DNA of 64,000 nt from an uncultured candidate division Zixibacteria bacterium (lineage in GTDB: Bacteria > Zixibacteria > MSB-5A5 > UBA10806): positions 64,001 to 128,000 of the forward strand of contig CAWFQL010000016.1 of assembly GCA_963817915.1 (NCBI GenBank). Reading direction: 5' to 3'. This document shows, piece by piece, positions 9,283 through 36,970 of this stretch (the first letter of the stretch is position 1; the number at the start of each line of letters is the position of its first letter). The position numbers were made by a program, and so were the translations under genes. The notes under the pieces are model-generated. The model did not search any database and was not told the origin of the DNA. It saw only the letters and a program-made list of their open reading frames with translations.

Positions 9283-9356
9283 AATTTGACCGTTTTTCAT
9301 TATTTTGGTCGAGATGAAACCTTTTGAACCTGTATAAGGTAGAAGTATGGTGATTT

Positions 9357-9905: not shown

Positions 9906-10217
9906 TTTTGGCAGGCACCGGCCATGCCAAAAAATTAACATTTATTGATACTCGAAAAATTCCTAAATAAATAGCTTGATTTATCAATAATAACTGCTAT
10001 TATTATACGGCCGATAAAGGTATTCGTAGATATTAGGATACCTCGCTATTTCTTTTAAAACATAATATTAAACTATTTTTTAAATTTGTTTTTAGTAATG
10101 CTATTTTTATTAAAAATGGCATTCCATTGCTAATCATACGCTTAATAAGGAGGTCAAGGAAAATCAGAGAAATCGACCAACGCTCCTGATATTATTACAT
10201 CAAAATAGAATATTAAC

Positions 10218-10646: not shown

Positions 10647-10676
10647 AAATCGATCAACTCCGGCACGAAATAAAAG

Positions 10677-10702
10677 GACGCAACCTGATATCAGATTGCG
10701 TC
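10677..10702. terminator. Hairpin between convergent genes
   Basis: GACGCAACCTGA-TA-TCAGATTGCGTC. Confidence 0.5.
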
Positions 10703-10728
10703 AGCAGTATATCATATTTTTTTTAGTA

Positions 10729-11931: not shown

Positions 11932-11934
11932 ATT

Positions 11935-12714: not shown

Positions 12715-13454
12715 TAAGCCTCCGGTGAATGCGGGTAATGACAATCCCAGCATTTATAGCGTTCCCAGTGAGTCACGAGATCTATTCGAGGAATTTCTCG
12801 AGGGCTATTGGCATCTTTGGAATGACATTGCCCGCAGAATTCGCGATTTTCAGGTTTCCCGGGCAATGATTCTTTTGGATTTTTCAGATGCTCATCGGAA
12901 ACAGTATGACATTTTGTACATGCCAGCGATACGTGGGGCGATACATTTTTTTCATTGGATATTTCGCGATGGCAAGCGCTGCAATCTTGCGGAGTGCGAG
13001 GAAGCATAGGATTATGCGGATTATGGCAGCTCATACAGGGTTTACCCGGATTATGTACGGCAGGCAGTATCTGAGGAAAACCTGTCGGCCTTGATGGATT
13101 GTACCCGTGGCAAACAGGACAAAATTCTCGTTCTCTGGGCGCGCTTGGAGTGAATTCATCCGGCGCCTCCGCATGCTTGGCGGCGGCATTATGGCAGACT
13201 TCGCAGGACAGGGCGCTATGATTCGATTTGGATTTGAGATCATTTACATCTGAATGGCATTCGATGCAGGTTTTTGATCCGGCATATTGAATAGGAAGCG
13301 ACGCGATTTCGTTGACGGCATCAGCGCGGTAATACCCATATTTGCCAAATGATTTTGGAACTAGAATAGACCTCGCAACAATTAGGGCTGTTAAAAATAA
13401 GGCAAAAAGAATGATTAAGCTAATAAGTTGCTGGGGTATCTTTGGGGTCTTCAA
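12714..13454 (-). CDS. Membrane-anchored octaheme cytochrome c
   Basis: N-terminal TM; 8 CxxCH (CIECH, CEVCH, CPVCH, CMSCH, CSACH, CTKCH, CGQCH, CWDCH). Confidence 0.92.
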   Translation of the reverse strand: MKTPKIPQQLISLIILFALFLTALIVARSILVPKSFGKYGYYRADAVNEIASLPIQYAGSKTCIECHSDVNDLKSKSNHSALSCEVCHNAAAKHAEAPDEFTPSAPREREFCPVCHGYNPSRPTGFPQILPAVHNPGKPCMSCHNPHNPMLPRTPQDCSACHREISNEKNVSPHVSLACTKCHTVSDEHLKNPKESLPGKPENREFCGQCHSKDANSPREIPRIDLVTHWERYKCWDCHYPHSPEA

Positions 13455-15686: not shown

Positions 15687-16646
15687 ATGAAAAATGGTCT
15701 AGCAATGGAGATTCAAATGAAGAAAATATGGGTCATTATCATCATTGAGGCGCTAATAATTGGAATATTTGCCATTAATACCCAAGCCTGTTCCGTATGT
15801 CGTTGCGGAGATAATGCTTTTCTATTTTCGGAAAAGGGCTATGCACTGCCAGGCCAATCGCCTGACAGGCATTTTCTTTTCAGCCTCGCAAATATTTACT
15901 CCACGAAATCAAATGCTCTGGCACCCGACGAAGGATCTGGAATTGAACGTCAGAGGGAGACGCGTCCGTCCTTAAGACTCACTTATAATCTTTCCGAACG
16001 ATTATCATTTTCATTCGAGACGCCAATTCAATTCAGGAGAATTGAGACTTCAATGCCTTCAGGAACAAATCGAGAAAACTCTTTTGGCCTTGGTGACGCC
16101 GATTTATCCGCAATTTGGATGACTAATTTGGCAGGCGGAGATGGAACATTCATAAATGGCGGTCTGTCGTTTGATCTGAAAGTCCCTACGGGCCGAAATA
16201 ATTTATCGAGAGATAGCGAACGTCTGGATGAACATCTACAGGCCGGAACCGGCAGTATCGATTGGCAGGCGGGCGTGGCGGTAGCCAAATCGACCTGTTC
16301 AAATCAGATTTTTTCAAGCATATATTATCGTCATAATGGCGAAAATAAATTCGATTATCATTATGGCAACGCAATCATTTTTAATTTGGGGTCGCAATGG
16401 CCATTTACAACCTGGTTCAGCGGCTCAATTCAGGCTAATAACCGCTATGCGAAACGGGACATTGAGAATAGAACGATCGTCGAAAATACCGGTGGCTGGG
16501 TATCTTATTTGACCCCGGGATTGAGATTCAATTTAAATGAAAGCGCCGGGCTTTATGCGGCACTTCAAATTCCTGTTATTCAGAAGCTTTATGGAAGTCA
16601 GACCGAGAAGGCCGTCTTTGCCAGCGGTGTAAGTGTCGGATTTTAG
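15687..16646 (+). CDS. Outer-membrane beta-barrel (MetA-pathway/transporter family) with N-terminal CxxCxC
   Basis: Signal peptide then ACSVCRCG; GLGDADL, LKVPTG, LQAGTGSID; C-terminal Phe. Confidence 0.75.
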   Translation: MKNGLAMEIQMKKIWVIIIIEALIIGIFAINTQACSVCRCGDNAFLFSEKGYALPGQSPDRHFLFSLANIYSTKSNALAPDEGSGIERQRETRPSLRLTYNLSERLSFSFETPIQFRRIETSMPSGTNRENSFGLGDADLSAIWMTNLAGGDGTFINGGLSFDLKVPTGRNNLSRDSERLDEHLQAGTGSIDWQAGVAVAKSTCSNQIFSSIYYRHNGENKFDYHYGNAIIFNLGSQWPFTTWFSGSIQANNRYAKRDIENRTIVENTGGWVSYLTPGLRFNLNESAGLYAALQIPVIQKLYGSQTEKAVFASGVSVGF

Positions 16647-16932
16647 CATCCTTTTTTCTTAAAACACTGAAATCTCGTTTTTCTCCTAAAACCACTTCAT
16701 CTTATTAGGAATTAATCTTAATAACAGACTGAACAAACGATTTTCGCTTTCAATGTGGAACGTTTTTTGGGGTTGTCGTTTCACTCCAGTATCATAAGTA
16801 CCCAAACTTCAGCGGCTTACGAAAACCCAAAACGAACGTGTTGCTGCTTGTCCGTTATTGCATCATTAATATGATATTTCGCATACCGATAGAATTAAGG
16901 ACAATAAATATAATAAGAAGGAGAAAATAGTC

Positions 16933-18960
16933 ATGAATAAGCTATCATTGAAACTCAAGCTGACTCTAATCTTTTTGCTAAGTTTGACAGTTGTTTTCTC
17001 GCTTATGGTCACCATGAATTATTCCAATCAGAGCAAAGACATCTCGGGAATGTACAACGAAAATTCCAAAAATCTGGAATGGCTATTTGATAATCAAATC
17101 AAGCTGATGATGAAGACCGGAAATAACGACCAGCTGCAGACGCTTTTTGATGAAGTAAAAGGCTTGGGCATGGTCAGCGATATATCCATATTGAACGATA
17201 AAAGAATTGTCGCGCGTTCAACCGATAAGGCGGCAATAGGAATGCCAGCGACGGACCCACTATGGGACAAGGTTTATCAAACCGAAAAAAGCCTTTCAGT
17301 CGAATCGAATATTGATGGAAAAGAGATCGTCTCCGAATATCAATTATTAATGAGTGAAAAAGCCTGTACCGATTGCCACGGAGAAAACGAAAAAATTCTC
17401 GGCGGATTGAAAATAGTGACTTCGAAAGAAAAACTGCAATCGGCACTGAAAAGCAATCTGTTTTCCAATATCCTGGTAGCCATATTAGGCGGCCTTATTC
17501 TGGCATCGATAATTTATTATATCTGGGGATCAAAAGTATTCAAGCCGCTTGATGATGTCAGACGCAAACTCGATAAAGCCGTAAAAGGCGATATAAATCA
17601 GAATATCAAACCAAAATCAAAGGATGAAATTGGCCGACTGTTAATCTCGATTCGCGACCTGATAGAATATGTCCGAGGTAAGGCCAAAGCGGCATCGGAA
17701 ATGGCCCGCGGCAATGTTGATGTTGAGATTGAAATAGCTTCCGAAGATGATTCATTAGGCAAGGCCATGAATACAATGAGGAGTTCTATTCAAGGTCTGG
17801 TTCATGAAGGAACTCTGCTCTCGAATGCCGCCGTAAACGGAGATCTAACTGTACGAGGAAAGGTCGATGGTTTCGAAGGCGGGTATCTTGAAATCATAAA
17901 AGGCATGAATCAAACATTTGATAATATGGGGCGACCAATCAATGAGGTTATCCAATGTCTGGCTGAAATGAAAAGCGGAAATCTTACCGCGTATGTCAGC
18001 GGCGATTATAAGGGCGATTTTGCTGAGATTAAAAATGCTCTCAATAGCACGCTGGATTCATTAAATGATATTCTTGGCCAGGTGGCGGCAGCCGCCGATC
18101 AGGTGGCAACCGGATCGCGACAAGTATCTGATGCCAGCCAGTCATTATCACAAGGCGCGACCGAACAAGCCAGTTCGCTTGAAGAAATTACGGCTTCATT
18201 GACGGAGATGACCGAGCAAACCAGGAAGAATGCCAACAATGCCTCCAACGCTAAGAATCTGGCATCATCGGCAAAAGATAACGCCGGTAAGGGCAATCAG
18301 CAGATGCAGGAAATGCTGGCCGCGACCAAAGAGATTAGCGAATCGTCCGCAAAGATTTCCAAAATTATTAAGGTCATCGATGAGATTGCATTCCAAACAA
18401 ACCTTCTTGCCCTTAACGCCGCAGTTGAGGCAGCAAGAGCCGGAGTTCATGGCAAGGGTTTCGCGGTTGTGGCAGATGAAGTAAGGAATCTCGCTCAAAG
18501 AAGCGCCAAGGCTGCCAAGGAAACGACCGAGCTTATTGAAGGTTCGTTGAAGAAGGTGGACAATGGCTCTCGAATTGCCGACGACACTGCCAAGGCATTA
18601 GGAGAAATCGTCGAAGGCGTCACAAGAGCCGCCGAGCTTGTAGCTGAAATCGCCAATGCTTCCAATGAACAGGCCCAGGGTATCGAACAGGTAAGCCAGG
18701 GTATCGGACAGATCGATCAGGTTACTCAATCGAATACCGCGAGCGCGGAAGAAAGCGCATCGGCATCCGAAGAATTATCGGGACAAGCAACCTATTTGAA
18801 AGAGCTTATTGCGAAATTTAAGCTTGCAACCCAAGACAATAACCAGAAAAATACCGAGGAATTTCTTGATAATTTCTCAAAAAACTTAAACCAAAAAAAT
18901 CCTAAAACAAAGGCAGTCCAGGCATTCGCCATGGATAGGAATAGCTTCGACAAATCTTAG
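16933..18960 (+). CDS. Methyl-accepting chemotaxis protein with heme-c periplasmic sensor
   Basis: 2 TMs; CTDCH in periplasmic domain; HAMP domains; [20 protein letters not shown]. Confidence 0.93.
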
Positions 18961-18996: not shown

Positions 18997-19032
18997 AAAA
19001 CGAGGCTCCGTAAGCATGCGGAGTCTCGTTTT
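18997..19032. terminator. Bidirectional rho-independent terminator
   Basis: AAAACGAGGCTCCGTA-AGCA-TGCGGAGTCTCGTTTT between convergent genes. Confidence 0.8.
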
Positions 19033-19070: not shown

Positions 19071-20783
19071 CTAGAACTTATGCGAATAATTTATGTTAGC
19101 GGTATTTTCATTGAATTTACCGCCCGCAGAGCTTTTATCCTTAAATGAAGAATACTTGACGCTGAGTTTGATCGAATCTGAAGTCCTGATCGCATAGGCA
19201 GATTGGGCGGTAATTGAAAAGATACTGGATTGTTTTGAACTTGAAACATCCGAACTCAGAGAGCTGTTCAGCTTCCCCTTCTTCATCCTGTTGTTTATTC
19301 TCATCGAGATAGAATTGTTCGAGTTTTTGGGCTGACCGCTGGTTTCGGTGCTGTTGGTTGCGAAACCCGGCGAAACAGACCATGATGGGTTTATAGTCGT
19401 AGTCAACGCCACTGAAATATTCTGCGATTTGACATCGCTGCCCGCGTTCGCCGCTCGAACAATATTGTTATCCTTGGAGCTTTGAGCGGCGTAATTCAAC
19501 GATAACGCATTAGCAAAATTAAATAGCGAGAATTGGAAGATCGCGCCCGCAGAATATCCCGAATTAAGATTGTCTATTTTTGACGAATCACTGGCGGCGT
19601 CATTTTTCATAGTATTTTGCATGTAATTAAAATTGAATCCGGCAAATTGGACAGGGCGGATATTCAATGTCCCGCCGTAGGTGTAGCGGGTGGTTGTAAA
19701 TAATTTCTGCTTGATCACGTTATCGTTTTGGGTCTGGAAATTACCCTGAATTGAGATTTTGCTCTGGAATAATCGCAAACCGGCCCCTGCTTCGATTAAT
19801 CGTTTGTCATTGATCGTGGAGCTAATCCCAAGAGAAGTGAAACCCGGGCCGACATATGTATAAGCTCCTTTAATATCAAAAATCCTATGATTGAATACAA
19901 GCTCAGAAGTATATGCAACATCAACGTTGGAGGAAATTCGAGGGGTGAAATATTTCTTCAATGACGATGGATACCCTTTGATATCCTGAGGCGTACTGGA
20001 AATATCCCTGGTGTAAGCGGTCGCGGCGGCCTCACCCTTGAATGTTAGCATTTTTCTGAATAAGCGGACTTCCGTATTGGCTCCGGCCACTATGTTTTCC
20101 TTTGCGGTTACTCCGTATTGGCCGGAAGTCGCTGTATCCGCACTGGTGCTATCGCGTTGGAAAATATCTTTGGGCAATGATTTGGCACTGTCTTTTGTTT
20201 GGACGAGATTGATATCAAAAAAGGATGAGCCCGTCTTGCCGATCCCTAATTTGACTCCACCCATATAGCGAGCGTACGCCGAGCCATATGGGCCGGCTTT
20301 TATCGCCCGTTGAGTCTGTCCTCCCACAGCTTGAAATCTGAGAATTCCCGGATTAAGAGTCAATCCCGCGCCGCGAATAGAAATTCCGTTGAGTGTATAT
20401 CGCGAGAAATCCTGGCTGAAATCGCCGAGATTGGCCGAACCCCATCCCCATGATGGATTAAGCGCAAACTGATTGATTTGCTGGCGCGCGGAGCTTCCCT
20501 CGGTAGAAAGGGTGATATCGAATGACATCCCGAATTTACCAAAGAGCGTAATGGTCGGCCTAAAAAACAGCCTTCCTGTCGAACTTGGACGCCGGGCTGG
20601 CCGTCCAGAAATTGAGTAAAGCTCACCGAATGTGCCAATTTCGCCAGACAATCTGAAGATAGGATTTCTCCTCTTGGGAGTTATAGGAGCATTTTCGGAG
20701 GATTGAGCCCAAAGCATGGCATTGGGTAATCCCAAACCCGCTATAAATAGCAGGCACACTGCAAATCTTGATAGTCTTTTCAA
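19071..20783 (-). CDS. Large outer-membrane beta-barrel protein
   Basis: Signal peptide; continuous amphipathic strands; C-terminal NINYSHKF; TTGA overlap with upstream gene. Confidence 0.8.
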   Translation of the reverse strand: MKRLSRFAVCLLFIAGLGLPNAMLWAQSSENAPITPKRRNPIFRLSGEIGTFGELYSISGRPARRPSSTGRLFFRPTITLFGKFGMSFDITLSTEGSSARQQINQFALNPSWGWGSANLGDFSQDFSRYTLNGISIRGAGLTLNPGILRFQAVGGQTQRAIKAGPYGSAYARYMGGVKLGIGKTGSSFFDINLVQTKDSAKSLPKDIFQRDSTSADTATSGQYGVTAKENIVAGANTEVRLFRKMLTFKGEAAATAYTRDISSTPQDIKGYPSSLKKYFTPRISSNVDVAYTSELVFNHRIFDIKGAYTYVGPGFTSLGISSTINDKRLIEAGAGLRLFQSKISIQGNFQTQNDNVIKQKLFTTTRYTYGGTLNIRPVQFAGFNFNYMQNTMKNDAASDSSKIDNLNSGYSAGAIFQFSLFNFANALSLNYAAQSSKDNNIVRAANAGSDVKSQNISVALTTTINPSWSVSPGFATNSTETSGQPKNSNNSISMRINNRMKKGKLNSSLSSDVSSSKQSSIFSITAQSAYAIRTSDSIKLSVKYSSFKDKSSAGGKFNENTANINYSHKF

Positions 20784-22828
20784 GGGTTTCTCGCTTGATT
20801 ATTTGATTCGATGATTTTTTTCGCTTCTTCCATCTGACCTGTTTTATGTAGAACCTCTATCAGTCTCTGCTGAAGAGTCTTGTTTTCCGGTTGCGCCTGA
20901 TAAAGGATCTTCCACTCCGCGCAGAGTTCATCCAATTTCCCCTGCTTTTGAGAAATCCTGATTATGCCATCGTATCCGTTTTCATTTTCAGGATTCAACG
21001 ATACGAGACGTTGATAACTCGAAATAGCCTCAGGGTAATTTCCTATATTTTCATAGATGTGCGCCATGTTCTCGTGGGCTTGAGCTGTATTTGGATTTAT
21101 AAAGATGATTTTTTTATAGAGCTCCAACGCCTGGTCATATTTTTTCACAAATTCGTAAGATTCTGCCTGATATAATAAAAGGAAAATGCTGGTCGGGTAT
21201 TCATTGATATACTCATCGAGCAGCTTGCTGAAATTTTCGTTCGTATTTTTTCTTTTGAGATAATTTAGACTATTACTTATAAGGTCCTGAAGATCTTTTA
21301 AATTGTCCTGCTCTCCCTTGAGTCGATCCACTTCATTCAGTCTGATATTCCCCTGTGGGTCCGTAATCGCGGCCTGAAGCCGATTCTGGAGAATTCCAAG
21401 TCTGCTTATGCCGAGGTCAAGAGCGTGCCGATATTGTTCCTCAGCCTTGGACACATCGCCCTTACTGCTGGAGATCGACGCCAGCTCTCCCCAGGGAAGC
21501 GGATCGACCGCGGATAACTTCGTGGCGAGATTGAAAAATATTCTGGCTGAATCCATATTCCCTGTGCGCATAAATGCGAGTCCGAGATTATAGGCCGGGT
21601 AAAACATCGTGTCGTTCGCCGCCTGGAATTTTCTGCATAACTGCAGCGAATTCGCATACGACTTCTGTTTTGAGTAAATGCTATTAAGTCTTTTAAAGGC
21701 ATTAAAATTATTGCCATTAATTTGCAAACAGGATTCGAGTTCACTGATGGCCAGCGAATCATTGGATTCACTTAGATAAGTATCCGCAATAGCCAGCCGG
21801 GCATCGAGATTAAGAGAATCCCGTTCGAGTGATTCGCCATAGGTTTTTCGTGCCTCAGCCCAATTATTTTCTTTTTCGTAAGTTTTGGCAATTTCGAATG
21901 TGATGCTATCGTCATAGGGAAACACAAGCGCAAGACGCTGGTAAGCTTCTCTAATTTTATCCTGACGATTAAACAAACTCCAATAATCGATAAGGGCGTC
22001 GTAGACCGGCCGTTCCGAAGGATACTGAGTAATCAATGTGTCATATAACGCCAGGGCTTCGGGAATTCGGTTATAGTATCTATAAAGAAGGGCTATTTGC
22101 AGTGCCAGCTCGATATTACCCGGATCGGATTTACGAGTTTTTTCTAAAATCGGCAGCGCTTTCGCGTAATCCTTCAATCCAAATAACGCTTGTAAATAAC
22201 CTTTTTCTATATCTTTATTTGACGGAAACAATTTTTTGCCGGTTTCGGCCAGGTCTCGGGCTTTTTCGAATTTCTGCAGTTCGATTAGCGATCCAATCGC
22301 GCTTAGGTACGCCGCCTCATTGGAGGAATCCGCCGATATAGCCATATTGAAATTCTCCCAAGCCTCTTTGTAGCGGGAGTCTTTGGCGAATTCAACTCCA
22401 ATATTGAAATATATTCTCGAGAGCAATTTTGAAATATCCTTTTGATTCGGCGCAAGCTTCTCGCATTGTTCTAATACGACCCTGGCTTTGGAATATCTCT
22501 TCTGGTTTCCGTAAAGCTGGCCCAATAGAAACAATATCTGCACGGAATTGGGAATCTGAGTATTGGCTTGTTCCAAAACAACGATTGCCCTGGCATCATC
22601 ATCGATCGCGACATACGATTTCGCGAGATATTCATAGGCCGATGAAGTAGTTGGTGTGGAAGCTATGCAATCTTCCAGTGTCGAAATTGCTTCCTTGTAG
22701 TCTCCTGAATTATATAGCGAAATACCATCGTCAAGGCAGGCCTGAGCGAACGACACTCCGGCCTGAACCATAATTGAAAAAAATAATGAAAATAGAAATA
22801 ATCTATTTCGCACGAATGGCATCTCCAC
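20780..22828 (-). CDS. Exported TPR-repeat protein
   Basis: Signal peptide; many TPRs (AYEYLAKSY, LFLLGQLY, AHENMAHIY...EAISSYQR). Confidence 0.9.
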   Translation of the reverse strand: MEMPFVRNRLFLFSLFFSIMVQAGVSFAQACLDDGISLYNSGDYKEAISTLEDCIASTPTTSSAYEYLAKSYVAIDDDARAIVVLEQANTQIPNSVQILFLLGQLYGNQKRYSKARVVLEQCEKLAPNQKDISKLLSRIYFNIGVEFAKDSRYKEAWENFNMAISADSSNEAAYLSAIGSLIELQKFEKARDLAETGKKLFPSNKDIEKGYLQALFGLKDYAKALPILEKTRKSDPGNIELALQIALLYRYYNRIPEALALYDTLITQYPSERPVYDALIDYWSLFNRQDKIREAYQRLALVFPYDDSITFEIAKTYEKENNWAEARKTYGESLERDSLNLDARLAIADTYLSESNDSLAISELESCLQINGNNFNAFKRLNSIYSKQKSYANSLQLCRKFQAANDTMFYPAYNLGLAFMRTGNMDSARIFFNLATKLSAVDPLPWGELASISSSKGDVSKAEEQYRHALDLGISRLGILQNRLQAAITDPQGNIRLNEVDRLKGEQDNLKDLQDLISNSLNYLKRKNTNENFSKLLDEYINEYPTSIFLLLYQAESYEFVKKYDQALELYKKIIFINPNTAQAHENMAHIYENIGNYPEAISSYQRLVSLNPENENGYDGIIRISQKQGKLDELCAEWKILYQAQPENKTLQQRLIEVLHKTGQMEEAKKIIESNNQARNP

Positions 22829-24776
22829 GGGTACTCTCGTTTCCGGATGTATCTACAGCGCGTACGCGATAGTAAATTTCTTTGGATCCTTTAGCGTCGA
22901 CAAATTTCAAATCCTTCAGAGGCGCGGAATTCAATTTCGTATAGGTGCCGGAAGGCGTCTTGGCGCTATAAATATTATAACCAGCCAGATCGAAATCAAT
23001 CACCCGTTCCCATGACAATTCAATGCCATTAGTTGTAAACGACGCAGAAGCGTTTCTGGGAGAAGGAGGCGGGCTGTAATCCCGAACCAAGACCGTGTCA
23101 ATTTTTGACGGGCCGCTCTTGTTGCCTGCCGAATCATAGGCAACGGCGTAATATATTTGAGATTTTCCCTTAGTAATCAAAGTATCTTCAAAATCGAATG
23201 GCGCCTTTGAAAAAGTCGCCAATTCCAGCTTTTCGCTTTCGCCGGTTTGTTTGATCAATTTGTATGATACCGCGTCGATTGAGGGGCTTCCGGCACAGGA
23301 TATTTCTACATATCTTCCATCTTTATTCTTGGCAATAAATCCCCTCGGGGGCAATGGCGGATCGTCATCCGGTACGACTATCGTAAGCATTACCTTCTCG
23401 CTTTCATTGCGCGCGCCGTCAACCGCGGTAACGCCAACTATAAAAGTCTTGCCGGGTGTCATTCCAGAACCTTGATAGCCACTATCGACAAAAGCTGTTC
23501 CCTTGAATGGGTCGGGAGTTAGCCTCGGCTGATCCTTTTGGGATTCGCCACGATATATATGATATCCAACTACATCTTTGGCCTTTGCGGGAATCCAGGA
23601 AAGATGCAGGACTCTCTTTTCGATTTTATAAGCGACATTTGTCGGTGGATCAGGCGGAGTCTTATCGATTGGAACGCCGGATTTAGAATTGCATTTTTCG
23701 CTTTCGTTGCCGGATTTATCGAGCGCGGAAATCTTATAAAAATACTGTAGGCCGTTCGTGATGGTCGAATCGAAATATATGGGGGTGCTGGCGGGCACTA
23801 ATGTCCTATTAATCTTGGAATATTCCTTATCAAGCCCCAGAGAACGATAAACATCGTAACCATTGACATCGAGTTCCGGGCTCATATCCCACGATATAGC
23901 CATGAAGCCATCCCCAGGATTTACAGCGAGATTTTTCGGGACGCCTGGAGCTGTTGTATCTTTTGGAGCGATTTTTACAGTATCGGATGGTTCGCTGATT
24001 CGACCGATAGGATCGACCGCCGCCACATAGTAAGAGTAGCTCTGGCCATTCGTCAGCCACAGGTCGACAAATTGACGGGGCGTAGCGTCGTCACGCAAAA
24101 TAGTCTTATCGTTTACTCTTTTGAATTCGCCGGTTCCCTCGTTTCTAAATATGTAAAACTGAATTGCCAGATCATCAAAAGTACCGTTCCATTTTTGATA
24201 ATCCCAGGTAACCGTCGCCTTTGTATCTCCGATCTTGACTTTGACATTTTTAGGGCGATTGGGATTGGTTTCCGATATAGTCACTTGTTTGCTAAGACTA
24301 TCCTTGCCGTTGCCACGGGCATCGACATAAACAATTTTGTATTGATACTCTTTGCCGTTCCGAACCGAACCATCAACGAACCATCGACCGGTAACTGTCG
24401 CCACTTTTGGACTTAATAGCGACATCACCCCGCTGATAAATTCGCTGCCTCTCAATTTTCGCAATACCTCGAATGGATCATCCGATTCGACGGCTTTGGC
24501 GATTGTTTTCCATTCATCGCCAAGTATGGATTTGGCAAGTTCCGGATCGACAACCGGCATAATCGGCGCTTCTTTGGTGAGCTTGACGAAATCATCGTTG
24601 GTCGGAAGCGGCCCCTTACGATAAACATCGAATCCTTGATTGGACGGCGGAGGCACGGTCAGGAATATCGCCAGGGTATCGCCTTTTGCCATTGGAATAA
24701 AATCGCGCTTTTGCTCCGCGCGGGAGATCCCATAAGTCGACAAAGAAATCAGTAAAAATGTAATTATTTTTTTCAT
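22803..24776 (-). CDS. Exported fibronectin type III repeat protein (about 6 FN3)
   Basis: Start MKKIITFLL at 24776 with RBS AGGGAGG; repeated DxxPPxPP...W...GY.IYR...Y.V.AVD..GNES. Confidence 0.88.
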   Translation of the reverse strand: MKKIITFLLISLSTYGISRAEQKRDFIPMAKGDTLAIFLTVPPPSNQGFDVYRKGPLPTNDDFVKLTKEAPIMPVVDPELAKSILGDEWKTIAKAVESDDPFEVLRKLRGSEFISGVMSLLSPKVATVTGRWFVDGSVRNGKEYQYKIVYVDARGNGKDSLSKQVTISETNPNRPKNVKVKIGDTKATVTWDYQKWNGTFDDLAIQFYIFRNEGTGEFKRVNDKTILRDDATPRQFVDLWLTNGQSYSYYVAAVDPIGRISEPSDTVKIAPKDTTAPGVPKNLAVNPGDGFMAISWDMSPELDVNGYDVYRSLGLDKEYSKINRTLVPASTPIYFDSTITNGLQYFYKISALDKSGNESEKCNSKSGVPIDKTPPDPPTNVAYKIEKRVLHLSWIPAKAKDVVGYHIYRGESQKDQPRLTPDPFKGTAFVDSGYQGSGMTPGKTFIVGVTAVDGARNESEKVMLTIVVPDDDPPLPPRGFIAKNKDGRYVEISCAGSPSIDAVSYKLIKQTGESEKLELATFSKAPFDFEDTLITKGKSQIYYAVAYDSAGNKSGPSKIDTVLVRDYSPPPSPRNASASFTTNGIELSWERVIDFDLAGYNIYSAKTPSGTYTKLNSAPLKDLKFVDAKGSKEIYYRVRAVDTSGNESTRGDAIRAK

Positions 24777-24786
24777 GGCCCCTCCC

Positions 24787-27700
24787 TTATCGCGCCAGAA
24801 TGCTGGTTGAGAACAAATTAGAATACATTCCAACCAGATTTCGAGTTCTAACATTGATGTAATAAGTGTTTTCGGGAAGCATCCCGATTGTATTCTCAAT
24901 AATTTCCCATTGGTCGACAACGCCGACATTTGTCCAATCAAGTATATCGCGAGTCCGAGTCCTGGTGCCAATAGATACTTCGATCCGAGTAACGCCCGAT
25001 TCCGGATCAGATATATTTTCGAACATCAATCTCAGAACATTGCCGCCTCTTCTTAGAATTATTGATGGTGATGCTTGCGGAGTTAAGGGTCGCGTATGAT
25101 CTACAATAAATGGTCCGGTGACAGTCGGACAGCTGATCATGTTTTGATTATTTACGCCACGCACGCTTATATAATATGTGCCATCGGCAAGGTTGTAGTT
25201 AGGCAACAGCCATGAATTTACCGGCCCGATATCGTTAGCTCCTGTGAAGTCTACATCCGAAGGCCAACCTCTCGCCTCTGCTCCACCAATGCTGGTTCCG
25301 ATTGCGACTTGATATCCCTTAAGCCCGGTTTCGGGATCATATGACGGCTGCGTAAACAGCAAATAGGTCGTCCCTGCAGGAAGACCGTAGCAGAATGACG
25401 CTGTGGGACTGGCAGGGCCGGTCGGATCTATTGGCTTGTAAAGCCCCAGTCTCAGGGGATTACTTGCCCGACCCGCGTAATTGAGGCCGATTACCTTTAC
25501 AAAGAATGAATCTGTATATGACAGCGGCGCGCCTGTGATGGCCGCAGTCAAATTTAAGGAAGTGGAAACCCAATCAGGTGAAATAATGGAGCTATCCGTA
25601 GCCGAAGCCACCCTATATTGATATTCCAATATTCCAGATTCCGGGTCGTTTGAAACATCCCAATATGCGCTGATTGACGGCGGCTGCGGCGGCGGCAAAT
25701 TTAATCTGAAGGTGAAACTGCCCAATGTATAGGGATAACCATTAGCGGGATCTAATTGAGGGGGTAAAGGTACGGGCGAAACTAAAGGCGGCTGCCAACA
25801 ATAATAAAACTGCGGGAACCAGACCGTGAATGCATTCCCTGGAACTGCGGGAGGAGTGGTATCGATCACGAGGCCGCTCGATGAAGTAACGGGACTCCAT
25901 ATAAATTGGCCATTTTTGGCGCGGACATTTACGTAGTACGTTTGGCCGTTCTGCAGATTGAGCCCATTTATTGATACCTCTGTCCGGCCGCCTGCCGATG
26001 TCCAATTGAGAACGGAAGAATCGGCATAATCGGTGCCGACACAATATTGATATTCGAGTATGCCTGATTCAGGATCGCTGCCTATCCAATTGGCATCGAT
26101 CTGATTGATATTGTAGGAATAATAAATATCAATGGGAATATACAGCCACCTTCTTCCAATATAAACGCTTCTAAAAGTCGAGACATGTTGATAATTCGGG
26201 AATCCAACATACCCTACCGACGGCGGCGTGACATCCCCGGACATTCCACCATACGAGTAAGATCCATTACCTCCGCCGGCCGCATAGAAATTAAGTGTGA
26301 AGTTGACCATTCTGGCATTGGTATATCCAGCTCCGCCGCGAGCTCGGACAAATAATGTTTTTGGAAATGCGTCCTGCTGTCCGCCGTATGGCCTCAGGAA
26401 ATATTGAGTCATACTAGTCGAGAGCCCGACATTCTGGAACCCCGAGCTGGGGATTGAAGTCCAGGTACCGTCTTCAAGCCGAATAGAATAATCAGTTATT
26501 CCTCTTGGATGTGAAGCATTCCAATTGAAAATTCCGGTGTTATAGAATCCCCTGTTGGTATTAATAGAAGATAAATTGTATAGTCTTGGCACTTGAAGAT
26601 CCTGCGCCAGTTGAGCCTTTCTATTGTTGATGTCCGTAAGCGACATCGGTCGATTTTTAATGCTGTCAGGCTGGCCTTGTTTCCAATATGCATATCGATC
26701 CAGGATATCGTAGAGGTTCTCTGTTAGTCTACTCTTGGTATCATAGATGGCATCGATTGAATTGGTGAATACGGCCTGAGCGTTCGTGACATTTAATACC
26801 TGATCGGCCAATAATCCGGGATCATTGGCGGCTATGGGTCCAACAGCCGAAGTAATGCGCTGGAGTCCGGTATCGCTCATTGTATACCACAAATCCATAC
26901 CGGTCTGATTGCATATCGCGATTCTCTGATCGGGTGTCGCGATATTCCAGTTGCTTTCAAATCCCTGGCGTCGTGATACGCTGTCCGGTGCATTGCCGAG
27001 TCTCAAAATCCAAGTGAATCGCCAGAGGGCAACATTATGGCGGAGGGCCTCAGATAGACGGGTAGTCTTATTCGAGATTACCGTATTCATCGTGCCCTGA
27101 CGGGATTCAAGTTCAGTTCTCTTTTGATAAGCCCAATCATTCATATCACGTTGATATTGCAGATGGTTTTTATAGAAGTATTCGAGTTGGGTCAGCAGGC
27201 CAAGGAAATGGGAGCCAACCGCATTATAGCTCATCTGCCCGCCGCTGCCTTGAAGAGCAGTCTGGATTGTCGTGAGACCGGCTTCCAACGCCGCAACTCT
27301 ATCTCTGATCGCATTTTCATTAGTATTAAAATCATTCTGGGCCTGCAAAAGAGTGGCGTTATTTTGATCTGAAATGCCTTGATTGAATGTGAAATCCGGA
27401 CCGCTGGTGATTCGCTTGCGGGTCATTCCAACACTGTCAATGTATTCGCTTGTTACCGGCGGCTCGAAATTATCATTGGAGATGGGGTTTCCGCCAACCG
27501 AGTAATCATTTGAAGGCAGCGGCGTTAATTGGGAATTAATTTGACTGAGTCTCGCGGCAACCTGTGTCCTATAGCCATTTGCGGCGCTAAGCATGATGTC
27601 AGCGCTGTTTCGCTGAGAGTTCAAGGAGTCGCGCTGTGCCGCTGTAGGAGCTCCATTTGCTCCGCCGAAGACGTTGCCAATTACCCATGAAAATTGATTA

Positions 27701-30700
27701 TCTTCGTCTTGAGTCGCCGGGCTGCCATAACTCTCTTCGGTTAATCTTGTACCTTCGAGTATTAATGCAGCCAGAATGAATGCCCAGGGATCATCGGACT
27801 GCAGAAGTTCGCTGCATAAAAATAAAGTCCTGAATGCGGCCGCAAGCTCCTGACCGGTTAGGGTCATGGCCGCCATATTGGCCTGAGGAATTTGCTGTTG
27901 CGCCTCGGCACTTGCATTTTCAACTTCCTGGCTTGTGCCCAGAGCATCATTTATTAATCGCTCCATTTCGGGGTCTTTACCAAATCCGGCAGTCACTTGT
28001 CCGCCCTTAAATTTGGCCCAGACGCTGCCATCCCAGCTGAATGTAAGCGCGTGAACACTAAGACCAGCGATTCCATATACGTAGAAATCCGGCTGACCTA
28101 ACAATGCGCCGGCAAGCCATCCTTCCGCGCTGACTACGCCGCCAAGAACCGATGCCGAAATCCAAGCCTTCATATACGCGCCCCAACTGACATTGCGCAC
28201 ATACCAGATTCTGCCTTCGATACCGGTGTTTATGGAGATAACCCAGATATTAAACGGTCTGGTGATACTCAAAGACATATTGAAACCGGGATTGCCGATA
28301 AACAAGCTTCCGGTAGCTTCAAACTGTGTCAGGATGTTTGCATTAAGCGCGCCGCGTATGCCCCAGGCATCCGCGCTATAAACATAAAATTCGAGTGACG
28401 CCGTACCAGTTACCACAGTTGACACTTGCAGGTTGATATTTATCGATCCTTCGGCGTATGCGTCCGTAAGCCCGATGAGAAGGTAGAATGTGCCTCGCAG
28501 GAAATTGCCCTGGCCGAGAACAGTCACTTCTCCATCGAATCTTATGTACGCCGCTGCTATCGTAAGAAGAATTCTGCCCTGGATCAGCGATCCAGTCGGA
28601 TCGACGATTGTGGCGCTGGCATATAATAGCACCGCGAAGCTGCCGGGGTCGGCGTTAATCCTATTGCCGGTGGCGTTATCGAGATTGGCCATCTGACGAA
28701 CTAACTGCAGATCGCTGGGCTCAGGATTGAGGAAAAATCCTCCACCGAGACCAGTGAGAATTACAGCAGGAGGAATCGGGATTGTCACGGACGATGCCAC
28801 AAAGAAGCCGAGACTGGTTTCGCCGTTCATGACGGCGACCTTGCCGACGACTATAATTTGATAGGCATCTACGAGTGTGCCCCTACCTCCTACCAGCAAT
28901 GAGAATCCGGCCTGTGATTGCTCATATCGCAGATCTGCTCTGAATTCCACTACTCCGCTAACACTGAAATTGGCATTGCGGATTACTAAATGTGAGCCGC
29001 CATCTGCAGTTTTATAAGCGAGGAATTCCTCGATGCCGCCGCTGCCGATATCGGCTATATTGATAGTACCGCCAAATCGGATATAGCTCGTAACAGCTAC
29101 TCTGAGAGTATCGCTGGATCCTGGCGAGCCCGGCCCTGATGGCGGATTACCACCAACGATGCTTATAGTTGTCGGCGTATCGCTGAATCCTATATTATTG
29201 ATTGTGACAGTTACTACATCAACGATTGTAATATCGCCGCCCGTGATAGATTCCGCCAGCCGTTCAACCCGGCCGCTTGCTCGAATTCGTAAATCAGTGA
29301 AATTTAATCCTCCGCCCGAGCCGGAAACATTGATTGCCAATCGGCCTGACAACGATAGCCCGAAATCACTATGCTCATCGATTGTTTGAATATTCGAGAA
29401 TGTCAGACGCAATGCTTCCCAGTTAATATCAACAAGGTTAGGGGCGAACTGGATATTCCCCCAGGTGACAACGCCATCGAATCTGACCTCCAGCCCGGGG
29501 TTAATAACACCTCCGGACTTAGTCCCGAAATGAATCCATTTATTTTGATCCTGCGAGAAATAAACATCGGCGATCACTTTTATAGAGCTCTGCCTCATAT
29601 CCGCGAAATTTAATGATATGCCTAAATAGGTCGGGTCGAAAGTTGCAATCCAGAACGAGAACTCAGTCTGATCGCCGTTACCCAAACCCGGAGTCTCATT
29701 CAGAACCGTGATATCGGCGCCGCCGGTCACAACGCCTTCTTTGGTCACCTGGAAATTAAATAATTGCCTGGTTGTATCCGCGGGCGCGGGCAGTTTGACG
29801 AATCCCTCGACCTTTAAGATTTCCAGATAGATATTGCTACTCTAGATAATGCGAAATAATCAGGCACAATATAGACTGGACTGCTTAGGAATTCCGCTCC
29901 CTCAAGCGTTACAGAACCATCAGAACCGATTCGGAAATTTCGGAACTGGCTGGTATTGTTCATGAAGGTTATCTCACCGCTCAAGCCCAGATAAAACACG
30001 CGATTCTGATAAGCGAACGATAGCGCCTTGGCGGGCGGACTGGTCAAATCCTTGATCGCGAAATTCGCTCCGAAGAGATCGAAATGCTGTATATCCTCTG
30101 GAAGCGTAATACTTATTTCAGGAACCGTTACGCTGTCTTTGGATATCCTCAGCCCGGCGAATGAGACCGCGAATCCATCTCCGAATCCCTGAGCCGTTAA
30201 AGTACCGCTCAGGGTAAGGGCTAAATCATTTTGGGAGAAGCTCAGATCTATTGCCGGGCTACTGCCAATCTGCTCAGGCTTGAATGTCGCAATCAGCAGG
30301 GGCAAACTGAAACTTGGATCATTAACTACATCGAAGCCGAAATTAAATCTATTCGATGCCCATTGAGCCACATAATGGATGGCTGCGGTGTCTGTTGATG
30401 TTCGGAATAGATCGCTTGTGATATCTCCAGACATCCTGATCGCAGGCGGGCCAGAACCAAATGACGCCTCGACACCCTGGACTTTTATTGCGGCCATTGT
30501 ACCCAATGGGACGTTGGCTATGTATTGTTCAGTAGCCTGATGATTAACATTAAAATTACCTACATTGACATTACCCGAAATCCCATTCGCCGAGATGGTT
30601 AGGGAATCGAGATTCACTACCACATTGTTCAATGCGTCGGGTAATTTAATTTTCGCACCGGCCCTCAACGCATAGATATTATTTATTTTTTGGAATCCGA

Positions 30701-33700
30701 GTTGAGTAATCGTTACCGGGATTCCTTGCGGAAGCAGTGACAGCAAGGTATCGCTTCCAGACGGCGGGGATACAACTATCGAGCCTTCGACAAATTCGAA
30801 TGTCGCCGGATTGATGGTCGCGCTGAAGCTGACTCCGAATTGCGGAGGAGCGCTGGCGCTATATTTTAAAGCGGGTATAACGAGCTGAACCTGCTGACCC
30901 GGCTTGGTTGATATCCTAATTCCATTAGAAACTGTCTCGGTCTTTACTAGAACTGTATCGCCGGATTTGACCCTTAAATAAGCAATTGAGGTGTCTGGCA
31001 ATGGAATTCGTTCCGGCATTGGAATTACGCCGAAGAAGTCTCCCGGGTGGAATCCGGCGTTATCAAGGAATGCTACTAATGTCGTATCCTTATAGAAACT
31101 TGCCTTACCCGTGGCTATTCGGAATGGCGATAACGCTATATTAAATGAATCGGTGAATAAGCATCTGATAGCGTCAAAATTGGTATTGTTGACTCGAACG
31201 AGAATGCTGGATTCGCCCGAAACCCCGATACCATTCGCCCCCAAAGTCAGAGTTTGGGGCAATGTCAACCTGACGGCCGTCTCTTCGGTAAGTGGAGCGT
31301 TTCGATCCACGGCAGACCATTGTAGTTGGCCGAGCGCGACAACAAATTTCAGCGCGAATTGGCTGGAGAATGATACAGTTCCAGATACGAGACTGAAATT
31401 TCTGACATTTAGCAGCAGATCGTTGAAATTTACACCGATACTGGCACCTTCGGCAAGATCGAGACTGCCCGCTCCATTTAGAAGCAATCCATTCCGGTCC
31501 AAAACCGCGTGGTTAACTACAAAATGAAGAATAGAATTCTCAGACGGCACCGACCATCGGAACGGATCCGTTACTGCGATCTGGCCGCTCAATATTTGGC
31601 CATGAATCAAATCGAAACTCAGATTTCCGGCCGCGGTGATGGAATCGCCGTTATTTATGCCAGGCAATCTAAGAGCTCCCGCAAGATCAATGACTGCGGA
31701 TTGCTCGCTGCCGGAAATACTGAAATTAACAGACGAATTGGTAATTCGTATCCGTCCGAATCCCAGATCCAGCGGGCAGGTCGGTATGAATCCCGAAAGA
31801 GTACCGCTGAGATGGCCGCCGCTGTCGATAGTAAATTCTGTCGCCATGGTATTGGCCAACCCGCTGTCGGGCCCGCATCTCATGAAATCCGGCATCTGAA
31901 TATCGCCGCGGAAATGAATACTGAAATTTTGGGCGCCGTTGGTATCGGATAACGCGCCCGATATCTCACGCACGAAGTAGTTTAGATCGCCGCCCAATGG
32001 TAATTGCAGACCCGGCTGATCGAAACTCTTCGTCTCAAGACTTCCCGTTATACGACCATTGCGGTAACCGGCGTTGAGTATGGTAACTCGCGGATTTTTC
32101 AGAGCAGGCGGCACATCGCCGGGGAATTCGGGAAAGCTAAGCTCAAAATCAAAACCAAAGCCCCAATCTCCCAATGGTTGACCGTTATAATCAAACCAAT
32201 TGAAATCAAGAGCGGACATTCTGAACGCCAATGGTTTCAATCCAAATCCCATGAAGGTATGAGTCGAATCACTCATTTCGGGAATCGAAATATCGGGCAG
32301 ATGGATGCCGGTCTTTCGGATTCTTATACCTGATATCTTCGGCAAATGCAGGTCGAGGTCCGTGAACTTAAATTCCATTCCCAATTCAATTTCAAAATCC
32401 CAGCCATTGGTTTGATCAAATGACAGCGATGGCAATGTATAATCCGAAAGGATTAGCTTTAATGCACCTAAATCGATCGATGGCAAAAGCGAATCGCCCG
32501 ATGGAGGTGTATCAACATTGAAATTACGGATCTGGATTCCGGTCTGGGTTACGCCAAACTCTGCCGAAGCTCCGTAATCCTTGCCCTCTCCAAGATGAAG
32601 CCTGATTCCCCCAGTGAGACCGAAATCAAAAGCAAGATTGGGCGGAGTCGTCTGGACATCGAATGAGCCATTAACTCTTGTTATATGGAGATTGAGCTTG
32701 TCGCTATTGGGAACTATCGGGATGGTTTGATCTATGGGGAAATCGATATTACCCATCAACCGGCCATCGGGCATCAATGTTAGCTGTATATCCTGCGCGC
32801 CAACATCGGTATTGAAAAATTTCATCTGGCCGACAAGCTGGAACGCATTTACGCCACCAACGGGGCCGTAAGTGAAGCTCTTAATCGCAAATGGTATCCC
32901 CAGACCGCTCAAATCGAAACTGGGCAATGACTGAGGCGGGATTGTGGCGTTGATATTGCCCCTGATTAAATCCTTGGTCAATGGATCGACTGTAAAATCG
33001 AATGTAATGTCTAACTCAGGTGATTGCGGGTTTGATAGCTTGAGCGCTGGAAAAACTAATTTAGCGGGCTGGCCTGGACGAGTCCATAGGCGGAGGCCAG
33101 TGCTATCGATATTATAATTTATTAAAAGCGAGTCACCCTGCTTCAACTGCAGATAAGCAATCGATTCGGTTGGCAGCGGCAGTCGTTCAGGCAGAAACGC
33201 TATTCCGAAATAGCTAAGGTCGGGCAGGAATCCCTGCGGAGTAAGTATGGCAATCCTATTTGCGCCGGAATAGAATTCGAGGCGGCCCTGTGTCACCCTG
33301 AACGGGCTAAACGAAAACGCGAAGTCCTGAGAAAATTCTCCGCGCAATCCGGGCAGGTCGAATCCTTGCAGTTTCAGATGCAACTGGCTGGTGCCATGCA
33401 TGGCCAGGCCGCGATTATCGATTGTAATAGAATCGGGGAGATTAATAAGGATACCGATAGAATCGGTAATAGGTGTATCTCTTGGCACAGCCTGGAAATT
33501 GAGATCGGTACCGTTAAATGATGCCATGAGAGCAAAAGGTGTATCGAAGATGACATTGCCCGAGGCTATCGAAAAATCGCTCCATCTAACACCGAGATTG
33601 TTGAATGTCACTCCCAGCGTAGTCCCTCCACCAAGTCGAAGGCTTTGTCTGCCGTCGATTACGATAGTCGAATCAGTAATAGTGGCGCGATTTATATTGA

Positions 33701-36372
33701 ATGATAACGCCGGATTCGATGGCGGAATATTCCAGACAAATGGCGAATTGATATTGCCATTAAGAGTGACGAATCTATTCTGAATAAATTCATATCCGAG
33801 GTTGACATTGGCGGTGATTGGCGGGCCGGATGGATTATTGAAAACCAGCGCGCCCGTTCCTTCGAGAAGAATTGATTGGGAGCTTTGATTTACGCTGAAT
33901 GTTAAATTCGAATTAGTAATTATGGCAGACAATATGCCCACATGAAGCGAGCAGGCAGGCACAATATTCTGGACAGTCCCTGATAGTCCGCCCCTGCCCG
34001 ACAGTGCGATAGTAGTATTAAAGAGATCCAGGCTTTGGCTATCGGGAGAACAATTGAAAGCCGAGGGAAGATCCAGCTTTCCTTTGATTCTAACGTCGGG
34101 AGAGATATTGAAATTCCCGCCGCTGAAACTTGCGCCCAACGCTCCCGATATTTCGGTGATCTTCATGCCAAAATCCGGCGTAATTGGAAGACGCAATCCG
34201 GGAGAAGTGAATGTTATTGGAGTTAGTGTCGCGCTAAAAGCGCCATCGGTAAACGAAGCATTTTGAATGCTTATATTCGGATTTCGAAGTTCTATCGGAC
34301 AGCCAGACGGTAGATTTGGCAGATTCATATTGAAATCGAACGCAAAATTCAGATTGCTTGGCGATCCGGGTTGCCAGGTCAGCCAATCAAATGATGAAGC
34401 CGGCATTCTGAATCCGGTCAGGCCAAGAGAAAAATCGCCAAATTGTATCGGCGGCAGATTGATAGATGAAAGATTAATATCAGGCAGATGAAAGCCATCG
34501 GGGCCGAATGTGACGCCGTCTATTGTCGGCAATTCCAGGCTGTCAAGTTCCGGGAACTCAAACGCGAGACTTAATCCAAGAGCGAAATTCCAATTATTGT
34601 TGGCGTACGACAGCGAAGAAAGCGACAAATTGCTGATTGCTAATTTTACCCAGCCCAGATCAATCGGAGAAAGCTGTATGTCACCGCGCGGCGTGAACGA
34701 TTGGACACTTATACCGCTTTGCTGTAAACGTAGGACAATATCCGCCCCGATATTGGTGGAATCATCGGGATGAAAATCAAGACCACCGGTTGCAAGTATA
34801 TCAAAGGTCACGTTGTTGTTCAGGAAGCTGGCGGAAAAATCGCCTGTCAATCCATTGAGATTGAGCATGAATCGATTGGAATTTGGGACCAACGGAATCG
34901 ATGATGTCCCAGTACAGGTCACATGGCTCGAAATTGAGCCGTCATCGGCGAGAGTGAAATTCGAAAGCTCACATTGTGTCGGTGTTCCGAAGAGTTCAAG
35001 CACACCGTCAAATTGAACAACCGGATTCGAAAAATGCACTGTTGCGCGCGTAATTCTCAGTCGATTTGGGGCTTCTCCTAATGTGACAATTGGAGAGGAC
35101 GGCGATCCGCTGATTGTAGCGTCGCCTGACAATCCGGTTCGCAATAAACGAATCTGCCCCTCCAATTGAAATGGACCGGCGCCATTCGGTAATGTCAAGT
35201 CTCCACTTACGTTGACATTGCCGGGCGGCGTGAAATTAATCTCATGTGGATGAAAATACTGGCCGGTCAGAGACGGCGGGATATCGCTTGCCGAAACAGA
35301 GGCACTGATATTGCCTGAAATAAATGTCGGAGGAGCGTAATTACCCTTTTGCACCTGCAGATCGGTTACGCTGGCGGTTACAGTAACTTGAGAACCATCG
35401 GGCAGATGAAGCAACAATGAAGCAGTACCATTTAATGTATAATAGCCGCCATCATCCTGGGCGGTGAGCGAAGCGACATTAATTAAGAATACCGAATTTT
35501 GCTCGAGTTCGAGCATTTCGAATGGCAGTCCGCCGTCCTGGCCTCCCCCACCAGTTCCATAGAAAAATGACCATATTTCACTTTGGCCATTATTGGATGT
35601 GGGCGCAGCGCCGGATGTGTCAGTAGCAGTAATTTGCCAGACATATTCTTTGCCATTTTCGAACGCCAGCCCATCCTGTGGATAGGTGTAGACGCTCATC
35701 GGACCGACAATATCGGCTTCATGATGGGGATAGTTTGATTCTATGGCCCGGTTCAATGTTTGCCCGGGCAAACGCTCAACAATCTTCAGATGATAATTTA
35801 TGGGGTATTGAGGTGGGACAATAACCGGAGTCCATTGAAATGTAGGATATTGAATATTGACATTAGAGCCGTTCATGGGGAAAATCAGTTGGGGCGGATC
35901 AGGATAAATCACGTTCATCGTATTGCAGGCCTCGGCCAATTGCGAACCCGCGGCGCTCATTACTCTGATACAAAATTGATATTCACCCTCCGGTAATCGT
36001 CCAGTTCTTATCGCCAAATCCCGCAAGGCCTGATTATAGGAGATATTCTCCCAAGCCATAAATTGAGAGCCGGAGAAATATCTGGGTATGCGGTCCGGCA
36101 GGAAAGTCTACAGTGATGCTCTGAGATGAAAATGCATCCGGATAACGGGAGGAGCTGACATTGACCATAAAATAAATCTGGGCCGGCGTAGAGCCGTTGT
36201 ATGTCAAAGTCAGAGAAGCCAGATTCGGATCACGCTCGATATCATTAAAATACGGACTGGGAAATGGCGTAATAAAAAGCGTCGCATTCCAGTTGGCATC
36301 CTGAGCGTATACTGATAGCGGCAGGACTAATAGTACAAAGGCAAATAGCAATAACCTTTTGAAATCTTTCAT
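24787..36372 (-). CDS. Giant exported protein (~3,860 aa): TANFOR-like N-terminus, duplicated beta-rich region, helical segment, FN3-like C-terminus; split by indels near 36075 and 29820
   Basis: Signal peptide MKDFKRLLLFAFVLLVLPLSVYAQ; ORFs 36034-36387, 29814-36059 and 24787-29748 join through open alternative frames (IFSGSQFMAW; LKVEGFVKLPAPADTTRQLFNFQVTK); downstream pieces have no signal peptide. Confidence 0.8.
30670..35020 (-). repeat. Intragenic tandem duplication, period 2175 nt (725 aa)
   Basis: IPLVPNS (34898) vs IPIVPNS (32723) and LPERLPLP..SIAYL (33194) vs MPERIPLP..SIAYL (31019) are both exactly 2175 nt apart; boundaries approximate. Confidence 0.85.
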
Positions 36373-36970
36373 GGCGCTGACCCTCACGTATTTATTTCAA
36401 CCTTGGGATATTTATCGATGTAATTCTATATGAATAAAAAGCGAAATCTTCCGCGCATAAGAGTGTTTGCATTTTGTTTATTGGTGTCGACATAATTCGA
36501 GCGACAATATCAAAGAATTTGAGAGATAATAAATTCTCCAAGTAATGATAATTATTATCAATGACATAATTGACAAAACCATTCAAGCTCTTGCGGCGGC
36601 AGGTGTTTGTCTTATCTTTAATGTTGTTATTATTTAAATATTTGAAAAATAATATACAGAAATTTATAATGCTCTCCCCTTTTTCCCAATGAACGTGCCT
36701 TATGATGACAGAGATCGAACTCAAATAGCCAATATTTATTCAACTTGTGATCGCTAATAAACAAATGCAATCAGCGTAGTTAGTATAATCTGTAATATAT
36801 TCTTGTCAATAGAATAATATGGAACCATATGGCTTTTAATGCAAAATAGTATCCTATTTCCAGAATGAGTTTAACACGAAGCAATATGGACTATGGAGTC
36901 GTTCCACGATAAACACTATCTCGCCAAATAGTTATGGTAAGTAGCATGCTTTCATCGTAAAAGAGGTTCA

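Follow-up and report, generated by a model that had tools for sequence, protein, structure and literature searches.

A plug-less outer-membrane barrel as a candidate surface route for giant TANFOR-like proteins in Zixibacteria and Bacteroidota

The stretch of 64,000 nucleotides analyzed here (positions 64,001 to 128,000 of contig CAWFQL010000016.1, assembly GCA_963817915.1, of an uncultured Zixibacteria bacterium; hereafter the window) carries on its minus strand, from 36372 down to 19071, a four-gene operon encoding a giant exported protein, an FN3-array protein, a TPR protein and an outer-membrane β-barrel. The barrel is a candidate for the route by which giant TANFOR proteins reach the cell surface, because the same barrel adjoins toxin-bearing relatives in Bacteroidota. 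Our favored, still tentative reading is that a dedicated barrel exports and anchors giants that carry a conserved N-terminal leader. It builds on a predicted complex of barrel and leader, on the linkage of the two genes across genomes and on the cargo found behind the same leader elsewhere.

The barrel and its predicted complex with the leader

The barrel gene (19071..20783, minus strand) encodes a predicted outer-membrane protein of 570 amino acids with a terminal Phe. Its AlphaFold2 model (predicted local distance difference test, pLDDT, 88) has 26 membrane strands, counted from the strand list, and no plug domain. No family name emerged from searches of Pfam, NCBIfam, solved sequences and the Atlas; the nearest named Atlas cluster, DUF6029 at 0.93, is a lead only. 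The dedicated barrel postulated by an earlier reading of the same DNA (the sequence-only reading) is supported. With the barrel profile, 3,730 representatives are recovered at E<=0.001. The closest named relatives of the barrel belong to Zixibacteria and Ignavibacteria, and the viral collection contained none. The leader, a TANFOR-like Ig plus FN3 domain of about 245 amino acids (35559..36297, minus strand), is the predicted barrel-plugging module and follows a Sec-type signal peptide (36301..36372, minus strand) predicted by eye and hydropathy.

The sequence-only reading had proposed to co-fold the barrel with the termini of the giant and with the FN3 protein, and the outcome for the N-terminus is in its favor. 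For the intact orthologous pair of genome G015, each partner with its own alignment, the score was 0.87, whereas the best of three controls reached 0.00; at least 85% of the contacts agree between runs, with a partner pLDDT of 83 or more. Among solved pairs the mark used for this score is reached by 116 of 157, as opposed to 2 of 215 among mismatched ones; this calibration applies here only roughly. Mapped on the model of the window barrel, the contacts comprise 19 of the 26 strands in the long-loop half of the lumen as well as the long loops, and none of the short turns. The predicted interface loops of the window barrel include residues 282-288, 312-327 and 354-364. Since the long loops of outer-membrane barrels usually lie outside, the leader would occupy that half of the lumen which faces the exterior. 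The contact residues of the barrel are polar, mostly Asn, Ser, Arg and Thr, and its interface shows higher conservation than its remaining residues (0.45 vs. 0.37), while the interface residues of the leader are barely above average (0.55 vs. 0.52). The modeling supports that barrel and giant leader bind each other.

Conservation and linkage of the cassette

An intact giant gene is followed by FN3, TPR and barrel genes in the same order in G015 and G023, two genomes of the same order as the window's, and the four-gene synteny is therefore conserved elsewhere. At 60 barrel loci the FN3 partner is present in 52 and a giant leader within the 10-kb flank in 27; by these profiles the barrel stands alone at five, and the contigs of three of these five are shorter than 9 kb. 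The subtype of giant found in the window occurs at 26 of the 60 loci, and a TPR match accompanies 24 of these 26 (eight of them weakly) vs. 0 of the other 34. Of the two partners postulated earlier, the FN3-array protein (22803..24776, minus strand; 657 amino acids with a signal peptide) is thus a near-constant member of the cassette; the TPR protein (about 20780..22828, minus strand; about 680 amino acids, also with a signal peptide) is no general partner and is accessory to the giant subtype of the window. TPR-barrel fusion proteins exist elsewhere.

Only 6 of 41 related genomes contain the barrel, which makes its distribution patchy. Among 301 sampled Bacteroidota genomes strong barrel copies were found in 51, harmless cultured species included; 48 genomes have both barrel and leader, three and three have one of them, and 247 have neither. 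A leader lies within 20 kb of 64 of the 69 barrels scoring >=200 bits, and a barrel within 20 kb of 61 of the 77 leaders scoring >=100 bits. Moreover, the distances among barrels follow those among leaders over 58 loci, six duplicate loci having been left out (Mantel r 0.92; best of 999 permutations 0.2).

The genome of the window holds a second cassette (G000:C12:278904-287874, locus L080) that consists of a leader giant of 1,709 amino acids with carboxypeptidase-regulatory-like repeats, an FN3 partner and a barrel, and has no TPR gene. In several Bacteroidota genomes orphan leader giants of up to 6,423 amino acids (G046:C7, G061:C60, G287:C17 and others) are encoded far from the barrel, which these genomes hold elsewhere. 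This suggests that the barrel serves orphan leader giants in trans.

Toxin-bearing relatives and sister loci

Relatives of the barrel occur in three of 72,556 plasmid records, and each of these three also has a match to a leader-bearing giant. On plasmid pEMTOL03 of Emticicia (L088:16651-34328) the order is a gene for an SprB-repeat protein, the barrel (266 bits), the leader giant and an SMI1/KNR4 gene. The leader-bearing protein has 2,719 amino acids and a WHH nuclease, and the SMI1/KNR4 gene is the immunity gene of this toxin; an FN3 partner was not seen in that stretch. In Persicobacter the cassette lies upstream of a leader protein with PT-HINT. Four loci of a flavobacterial type are arranged as large protein, barrel, leader giant and small open reading frame, and none of their giants carries a named toxin domain. 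Toxin-bearing leaders thus lie next to barrels of this family, and the system extends beyond non-toxin cargo. The sequence-only reading had assumed a non-toxin cargo; this stands for the giant of the window, on which no toxin family was found, and does not extend to the barrel family elsewhere.

In the toxin-type loci L102-L106 the barrels have an extra extension of about 250 amino acids, C-terminal in four and N-terminal in L105. Pfam has no match for the C-termini of their giants, which may represent new toxin domains. A Bergeyella plasmid (L090) has a heavily fragmented cluster with several leader genes, deaminase genes, FN3 partner, SprB, PKD and barrel. A sister operon (L100:6262-13187, L101:5555-12051) encodes a short leader-like protein of 356-396 amino acids, a FecR protein, a barrel of 812-918 amino acids and a CHASE2 adenylate/guanylate cyclase, and looks like an undescribed envelope-sensing system; weak barrel matches like the one in this sister operon are present in many of 145 of the 301 genomes.

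Leader and body of the giant protein

The earlier assignment of the N-terminus to the TANFOR type holds as remote homology and not as family membership. TIGR02542 scores 13.6 bits on the giant of the window, where the domain is split by a frame break, far under the cut-off of 67. It does not match the two intact orthologues at E<=0.1, and the cut-off is reached in none of the 301 Bacteroidota genomes. In the genome of the window the only matches at E<=1 are the two giant N-termini, and two leader homologues, P0331 and P0329, reach 40.6 and 32.8 bits over most of TIGR02542. Judged from these sequence comparisons, the N-terminal domain is a TANFOR homologue, remote and transitive. A search with the N-terminus of the paralogue yielded 92 proteins; the leader region is common to all of them, whereas any later part is shared by 17 at most; in the 301 Bacteroidota genomes leader-bearing proteins range from 273 to 6,423 amino acids.

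Behind the leader, all on the minus strand, follow two copies of a β-rich module of about 725 amino acids (32835..35018 and 30642..32831), whose copy number differs among orthologues (giants of 3,463 to 6,423 amino acids), a long, strongly amphipathic antiparallel β-meander of about 375 amino acids (27979..29100), for which no close solved fold was found, a probably helical stalk segment (26710..27948), proposed from composition and from its start being modeled as helices, and C-terminal Ig/FN3-like repeats (24799..26244), in which no toxin family or type IX secretion system (T9SS) tail was found. The FN3-like C-terminus noted earlier is confirmed, and no small immunity-like gene follows it; the next gene is the FN3 array. 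Pfam and NCBIfam contain no toxin family that matches the giant or its orthologues, a scan that a novel type of toxin domain would escape. In the same databases no T9SS tail family, type A or other, was found on 15 giants, and family scans of the giants gave no two-partner secretion (TPS) or hemagglutinin domain. DUF6603 (PF20248), a family named for checking by the sequence-only reading, reaches 13.2 bits in one orthologue, under its cut-off of 27, and thus finds no support. Adhesin-type Ig repeats are present in related giant bodies.

In the model of the meander, hydropathies range from +1.7 to +3.1 on one face of the strands and mostly fall below -1 on the opposite face; the meander is more amphipathic than the barrel itself. 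This model, with a predicted template-modeling score (pTM) of 0.41, was folded within residues 1700-2860 of the G015 giant and not alone. For this segment the top Foldseek match is ApoB100 at a template-modeling score (TM) of 0.12, and the top VIA matches are barrels with a root-mean-square deviation (rmsd) of 7-18 Å; TamB and Vps13, of the bridge-like lipid transporters (TamB/AsmA/Vps13), are not among the matches listed and may yet be similar. A first profile found the meander in 3 of the 92 giants and four iterations extended this to 62, with several scores near that of the reversed-sequence control (12.7 bits). By the same iteration it was not detected in 30 of the 92 giants, nor in the flavobacterial toxin-type giants.

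The operon and its giant gene

The operon as first observed is confirmed. The giant and FN3 genes are spaced by 10 nt, the FN3 and TPR genes overlap, and TPR and barrel genes overlap by 4 nt; a terminator-like hairpin (19006..19023, minus strand; one found vs. 0.2 expected) lies 3' of the barrel gene. A match of 11/12 to a sigma-70-like promoter (36782..36809, minus strand) is weak evidence, as six such sites were found vs. 4.6 expected. All four products begin with basic residues followed by a hydrophobic stretch (best 10-residue hydropathy 2.5-3.5), in agreement with the Sec-type signal peptides proposed before; these calls were made by eye and hydropathy. The T9SS tail TIGR04183 matches three proteins of the window and none of the four operon products, as had been noted for the giant.

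The giant gene (24787..36372, minus strand) runs from an ATG at 36372 to a stop at 24787 over 11,586 nt and three frames, and would encode about 3,860 amino acids. Its frame is broken near 36100-36060 and 29832-29817. Intact giants of 3,878 and 3,901 amino acids exist in G015 and G023, with which the three pieces are colinear from end to end at 35-55% identity (40-55% for intact neighbor genes). When the genome was tested with proteins from other loci, 17 frameshift-like sites were found in about 157 bins of 1.5 kb. As such sites are frequent in the assembly, two breaks in 11.6 kb are unremarkable, and both are probably assembly errors; the three open reading frames can be assumed, as before, to be one gene. 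The same frequency of frameshift-like breaks calls for caution with any further split gene of the assembly.

Export, anchoring or conduit

In the favored reading Sec would carry all four proteins across the inner membrane. The two-domain leader is predicted to fill the plug-less barrel in the outer half of its lumen, where conserved outer loops would clamp it. The variable body would exit through the barrel, or be threaded during barrel assembly, and would be displayed on the surface with the leader as its tether. FN3 array and accessory TPR protein may act as periplasmic scaffold or chaperone, the weakest step of the scheme. The cargo would here be a non-toxin, adhesin-like rod, with toxins behind the same leader in other Bacteroidota. 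That the body faces outward we infer from lengths of 273 to 6,423 amino acids, from the adhesin-type Ig repeats and from the nuclease toxin with immunity gene behind the barrel. Held with slightly more reserve is the wider proposal of a T9SS-independent system of the Fibrobacterota-Chlorobiota-Bacteroidota (FCB) group, in which the 26-strand barrel would export any protein with a TANFOR-FN3 leader, keep the leader as plug and so display adhesins of giant size or toxins that act on contact; in an old sister branch the same barrel-leader pair would serve as a sensor coupled to FecR and a CHASE2 cyclase.

Several points weigh against the favored reading. The genome itself has SprA and 150 T9SS tail matches, SprA is found in 7 of the 9 Gemmatimonadota with a cassette barrel (154 of 201 overall, a tally that includes the unpublished genome G498), and toxin-type loci include SprB or T9SS-tail genes; the large protein of the flavobacterial type has a T9SS tail in the one locus tested. 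With SprA in most carriers and T9SS-tail genes at toxin loci, the T9SS could do the transport. The distribution of SprA gave no support for the independence from the T9SS-like route that the sequence-only reading had inferred. The barrel has no POTRA or other recognizable export domain. The co-fold used the G015 pair, not the window copy, and does not give the direction of the body. The linkage counts omit weaker rows and use thresholds chosen once the scores had been seen, and the profiles held sequences from five of the sampled genomes; for 16 of the 77 strong leaders the 20-kb neighborhood contains no barrel, although the genome has one elsewhere in 13 of these cases. The tree match of the FN3 partner is weaker (r about 0.4, at 0.41, over 38 loci), and co-occurrence and tree match overstate the link because kin share genes. 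As a whole, the earlier interpretation is partly supported.

The rival that survives best, although we regard it as unlikely, is that the barrel is an anchor only: the T9SS or another machine would export the tail-less giant, perhaps together with a T9SS substrate, and the leader would dock from outside. The predicted contacts, confined to the outer half and the outer loops, fit this reading, as do SprA in the own genome and in most Gemmatimonadota carriers, the T9SS-tail genes beside toxin-type loci and the T9SS export proposed for TANFOR toxins (Jana et al., 2020; PMC7073777). However, the 15 giants are without a T9SS tail family, this operon contains no T9SS substrate, and SprA was not seen in two of the nine Gemmatimonadota carriers, a weak argument given incomplete genomes.

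Rather improbable is that the leader plugs the barrel while the body extends inward through the periplasm and forms a trans-envelope conduit, its meander providing a groove for lipid or substrate as in Lpt or Tam bridges. The meander keeps this reading alive, and the strongly amphipathic faces, the detection in 62 of 92 giants (some near noise) and the sister barrel, which sits with a short leader-like protein, FecR and CHASE2 cyclase and so points to trans-envelope action, speak for it. On the other hand, body lengths span a range of over twentyfold, with differences of entire 725-aa modules, a toxin has to get out of the cell to act as cargo, and the meander is undetected in the flavobacterial toxin-type and in 30 of the 92 giants.

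Very improbable is that barrel and giant share a transcript without any binding between them, the barrel being a solute channel or serving the FN3 protein. A co-fold score is a model confidence and not a measurement, neighboring genes sometimes pass the mark (7 of 44 blind neighbors), and the leader interface is hardly conserved above average; yet a score of 0.87 vs. 0.00 with a lumen-wide interface, a barrel tree much closer to that of the leader than to that of the FN3 partner (0.92 vs. 0.41) and the raised conservation of the barrel interface argue for binding. We give very little credence to a recent pseudogene or three real genes in place of the giant: neither frame break lies in a long homopolymer, but frameshift-like sites are frequent genome-wide, the pieces match intact orthologues at an identity like that of intact neighbors, and pieces 2 and 3 have no signal peptide.

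Other features of the window

At 7957-13454 a porin-like protein and a small cytochrome c face a multiheme cytochrome, an Fe-S protein and an NrfD-like membrane protein; the multiheme match comes from Pfam, the other names were given by eye. Two methyl-accepting chemotaxis proteins are encoded at 15687-18960 and 61002-62933, the former with CxxCH in its sensor and preceded by a small barrel-like gene. Open reading frames of 524, 887 and 305 amino acids (52259-53833, 57166-60751) have no Pfam match at E<=1e-8.

Comparison with known systems and implications

Type Vb systems (FhaC/FHA, CdiB/CdiA) combine a dedicated barrel with a giant cargo that has a conserved N-terminal module, a variable body and sometimes toxin and immunity, and orphan cargos occur elsewhere in the genome. 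The cassette shares the dedicated barrel, the giant cargo with conserved N-terminal module, the variable body, in some relatives the toxin with immunity gene, and the orphan cargos. However, the type Vb barrel is a 16-strand Omp85/POTRA protein, whereas the barrel described here has 26 strands and no Omp85/POTRA match in 51 members or in solved sequences; moreover, there is an extra FN3 partner and no TPS/hemagglutinin domain. LptD/E and TamA/B have a large barrel with a separate plug protein and an amphipathic β-sheet in the partner, features that are also predicted for the cassette; unlike them, it gives no family match, LptD aligns with the barrel far below MtrB (Z 12.2, rmsd 8.4), and the meander has no close match to solved bridges among the matches listed. 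The lumen of MtrB is filled by its partner protein MtrA, and in this the predicted leader-filled lumen is alike. MtrB of MtrAB(C) (PDB 6r2q), also a 26-strand barrel without its own plug, is the top structural match (VIA Z 21.6, rmsd 4.9, 457 aligned residues, next Z 17.0; Foldseek TM 0.54). It differs by an identity of 9-11%, by the missing Pfam match and by its cytochrome partner, where the cassette has the Ig/FN3 leader of a giant. No cassette protein contains a CxxCH heme motif, and a porin-cytochrome role of the barrel was ruled out on this ground. In its mode of action the cassette would resemble two-partner secretion or a barrel with a separate plug, yet it belongs to neither class.

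With the TANFOR polymorphic toxins (TIGR02542) the giant shares the signal peptide, the remotely TANFOR-like plus FN3 N-terminus, the variable giant body and the FN3 neighbor; unlike them, it is below the TIGR02542 cut-off, has no toxin or immunity gene and lies outside the Bacteroidota. For these toxins T9SS export was proposed, and the accessible parts of the paper name no barrel and leave the exit route open (Jana et al., 2020; PMC7073777). In its table, the rows listed that name COG3401 all have an unannotated upstream gene of 528-581 amino acids (30 of 30), which resembles the barrel by length only, and the toxin rows listed have PKD or SprB genes upstream instead (PMC7073777). In the literature searched, which lay outside subscription papers and bioRxiv supplements, no description of the barrel-leader system was found, and the accessible parts of bioRxiv 2021.10.19.465003 and PMC12419801 do not treat this barrel. 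For the exit of TANFOR toxins there is now a candidate machine, for which a putative docking signal and predicted interface residues can also be given. Furthermore, a portable leader of 245 amino acids that anchors cargos of up to 6,400 amino acids would be a display tool.

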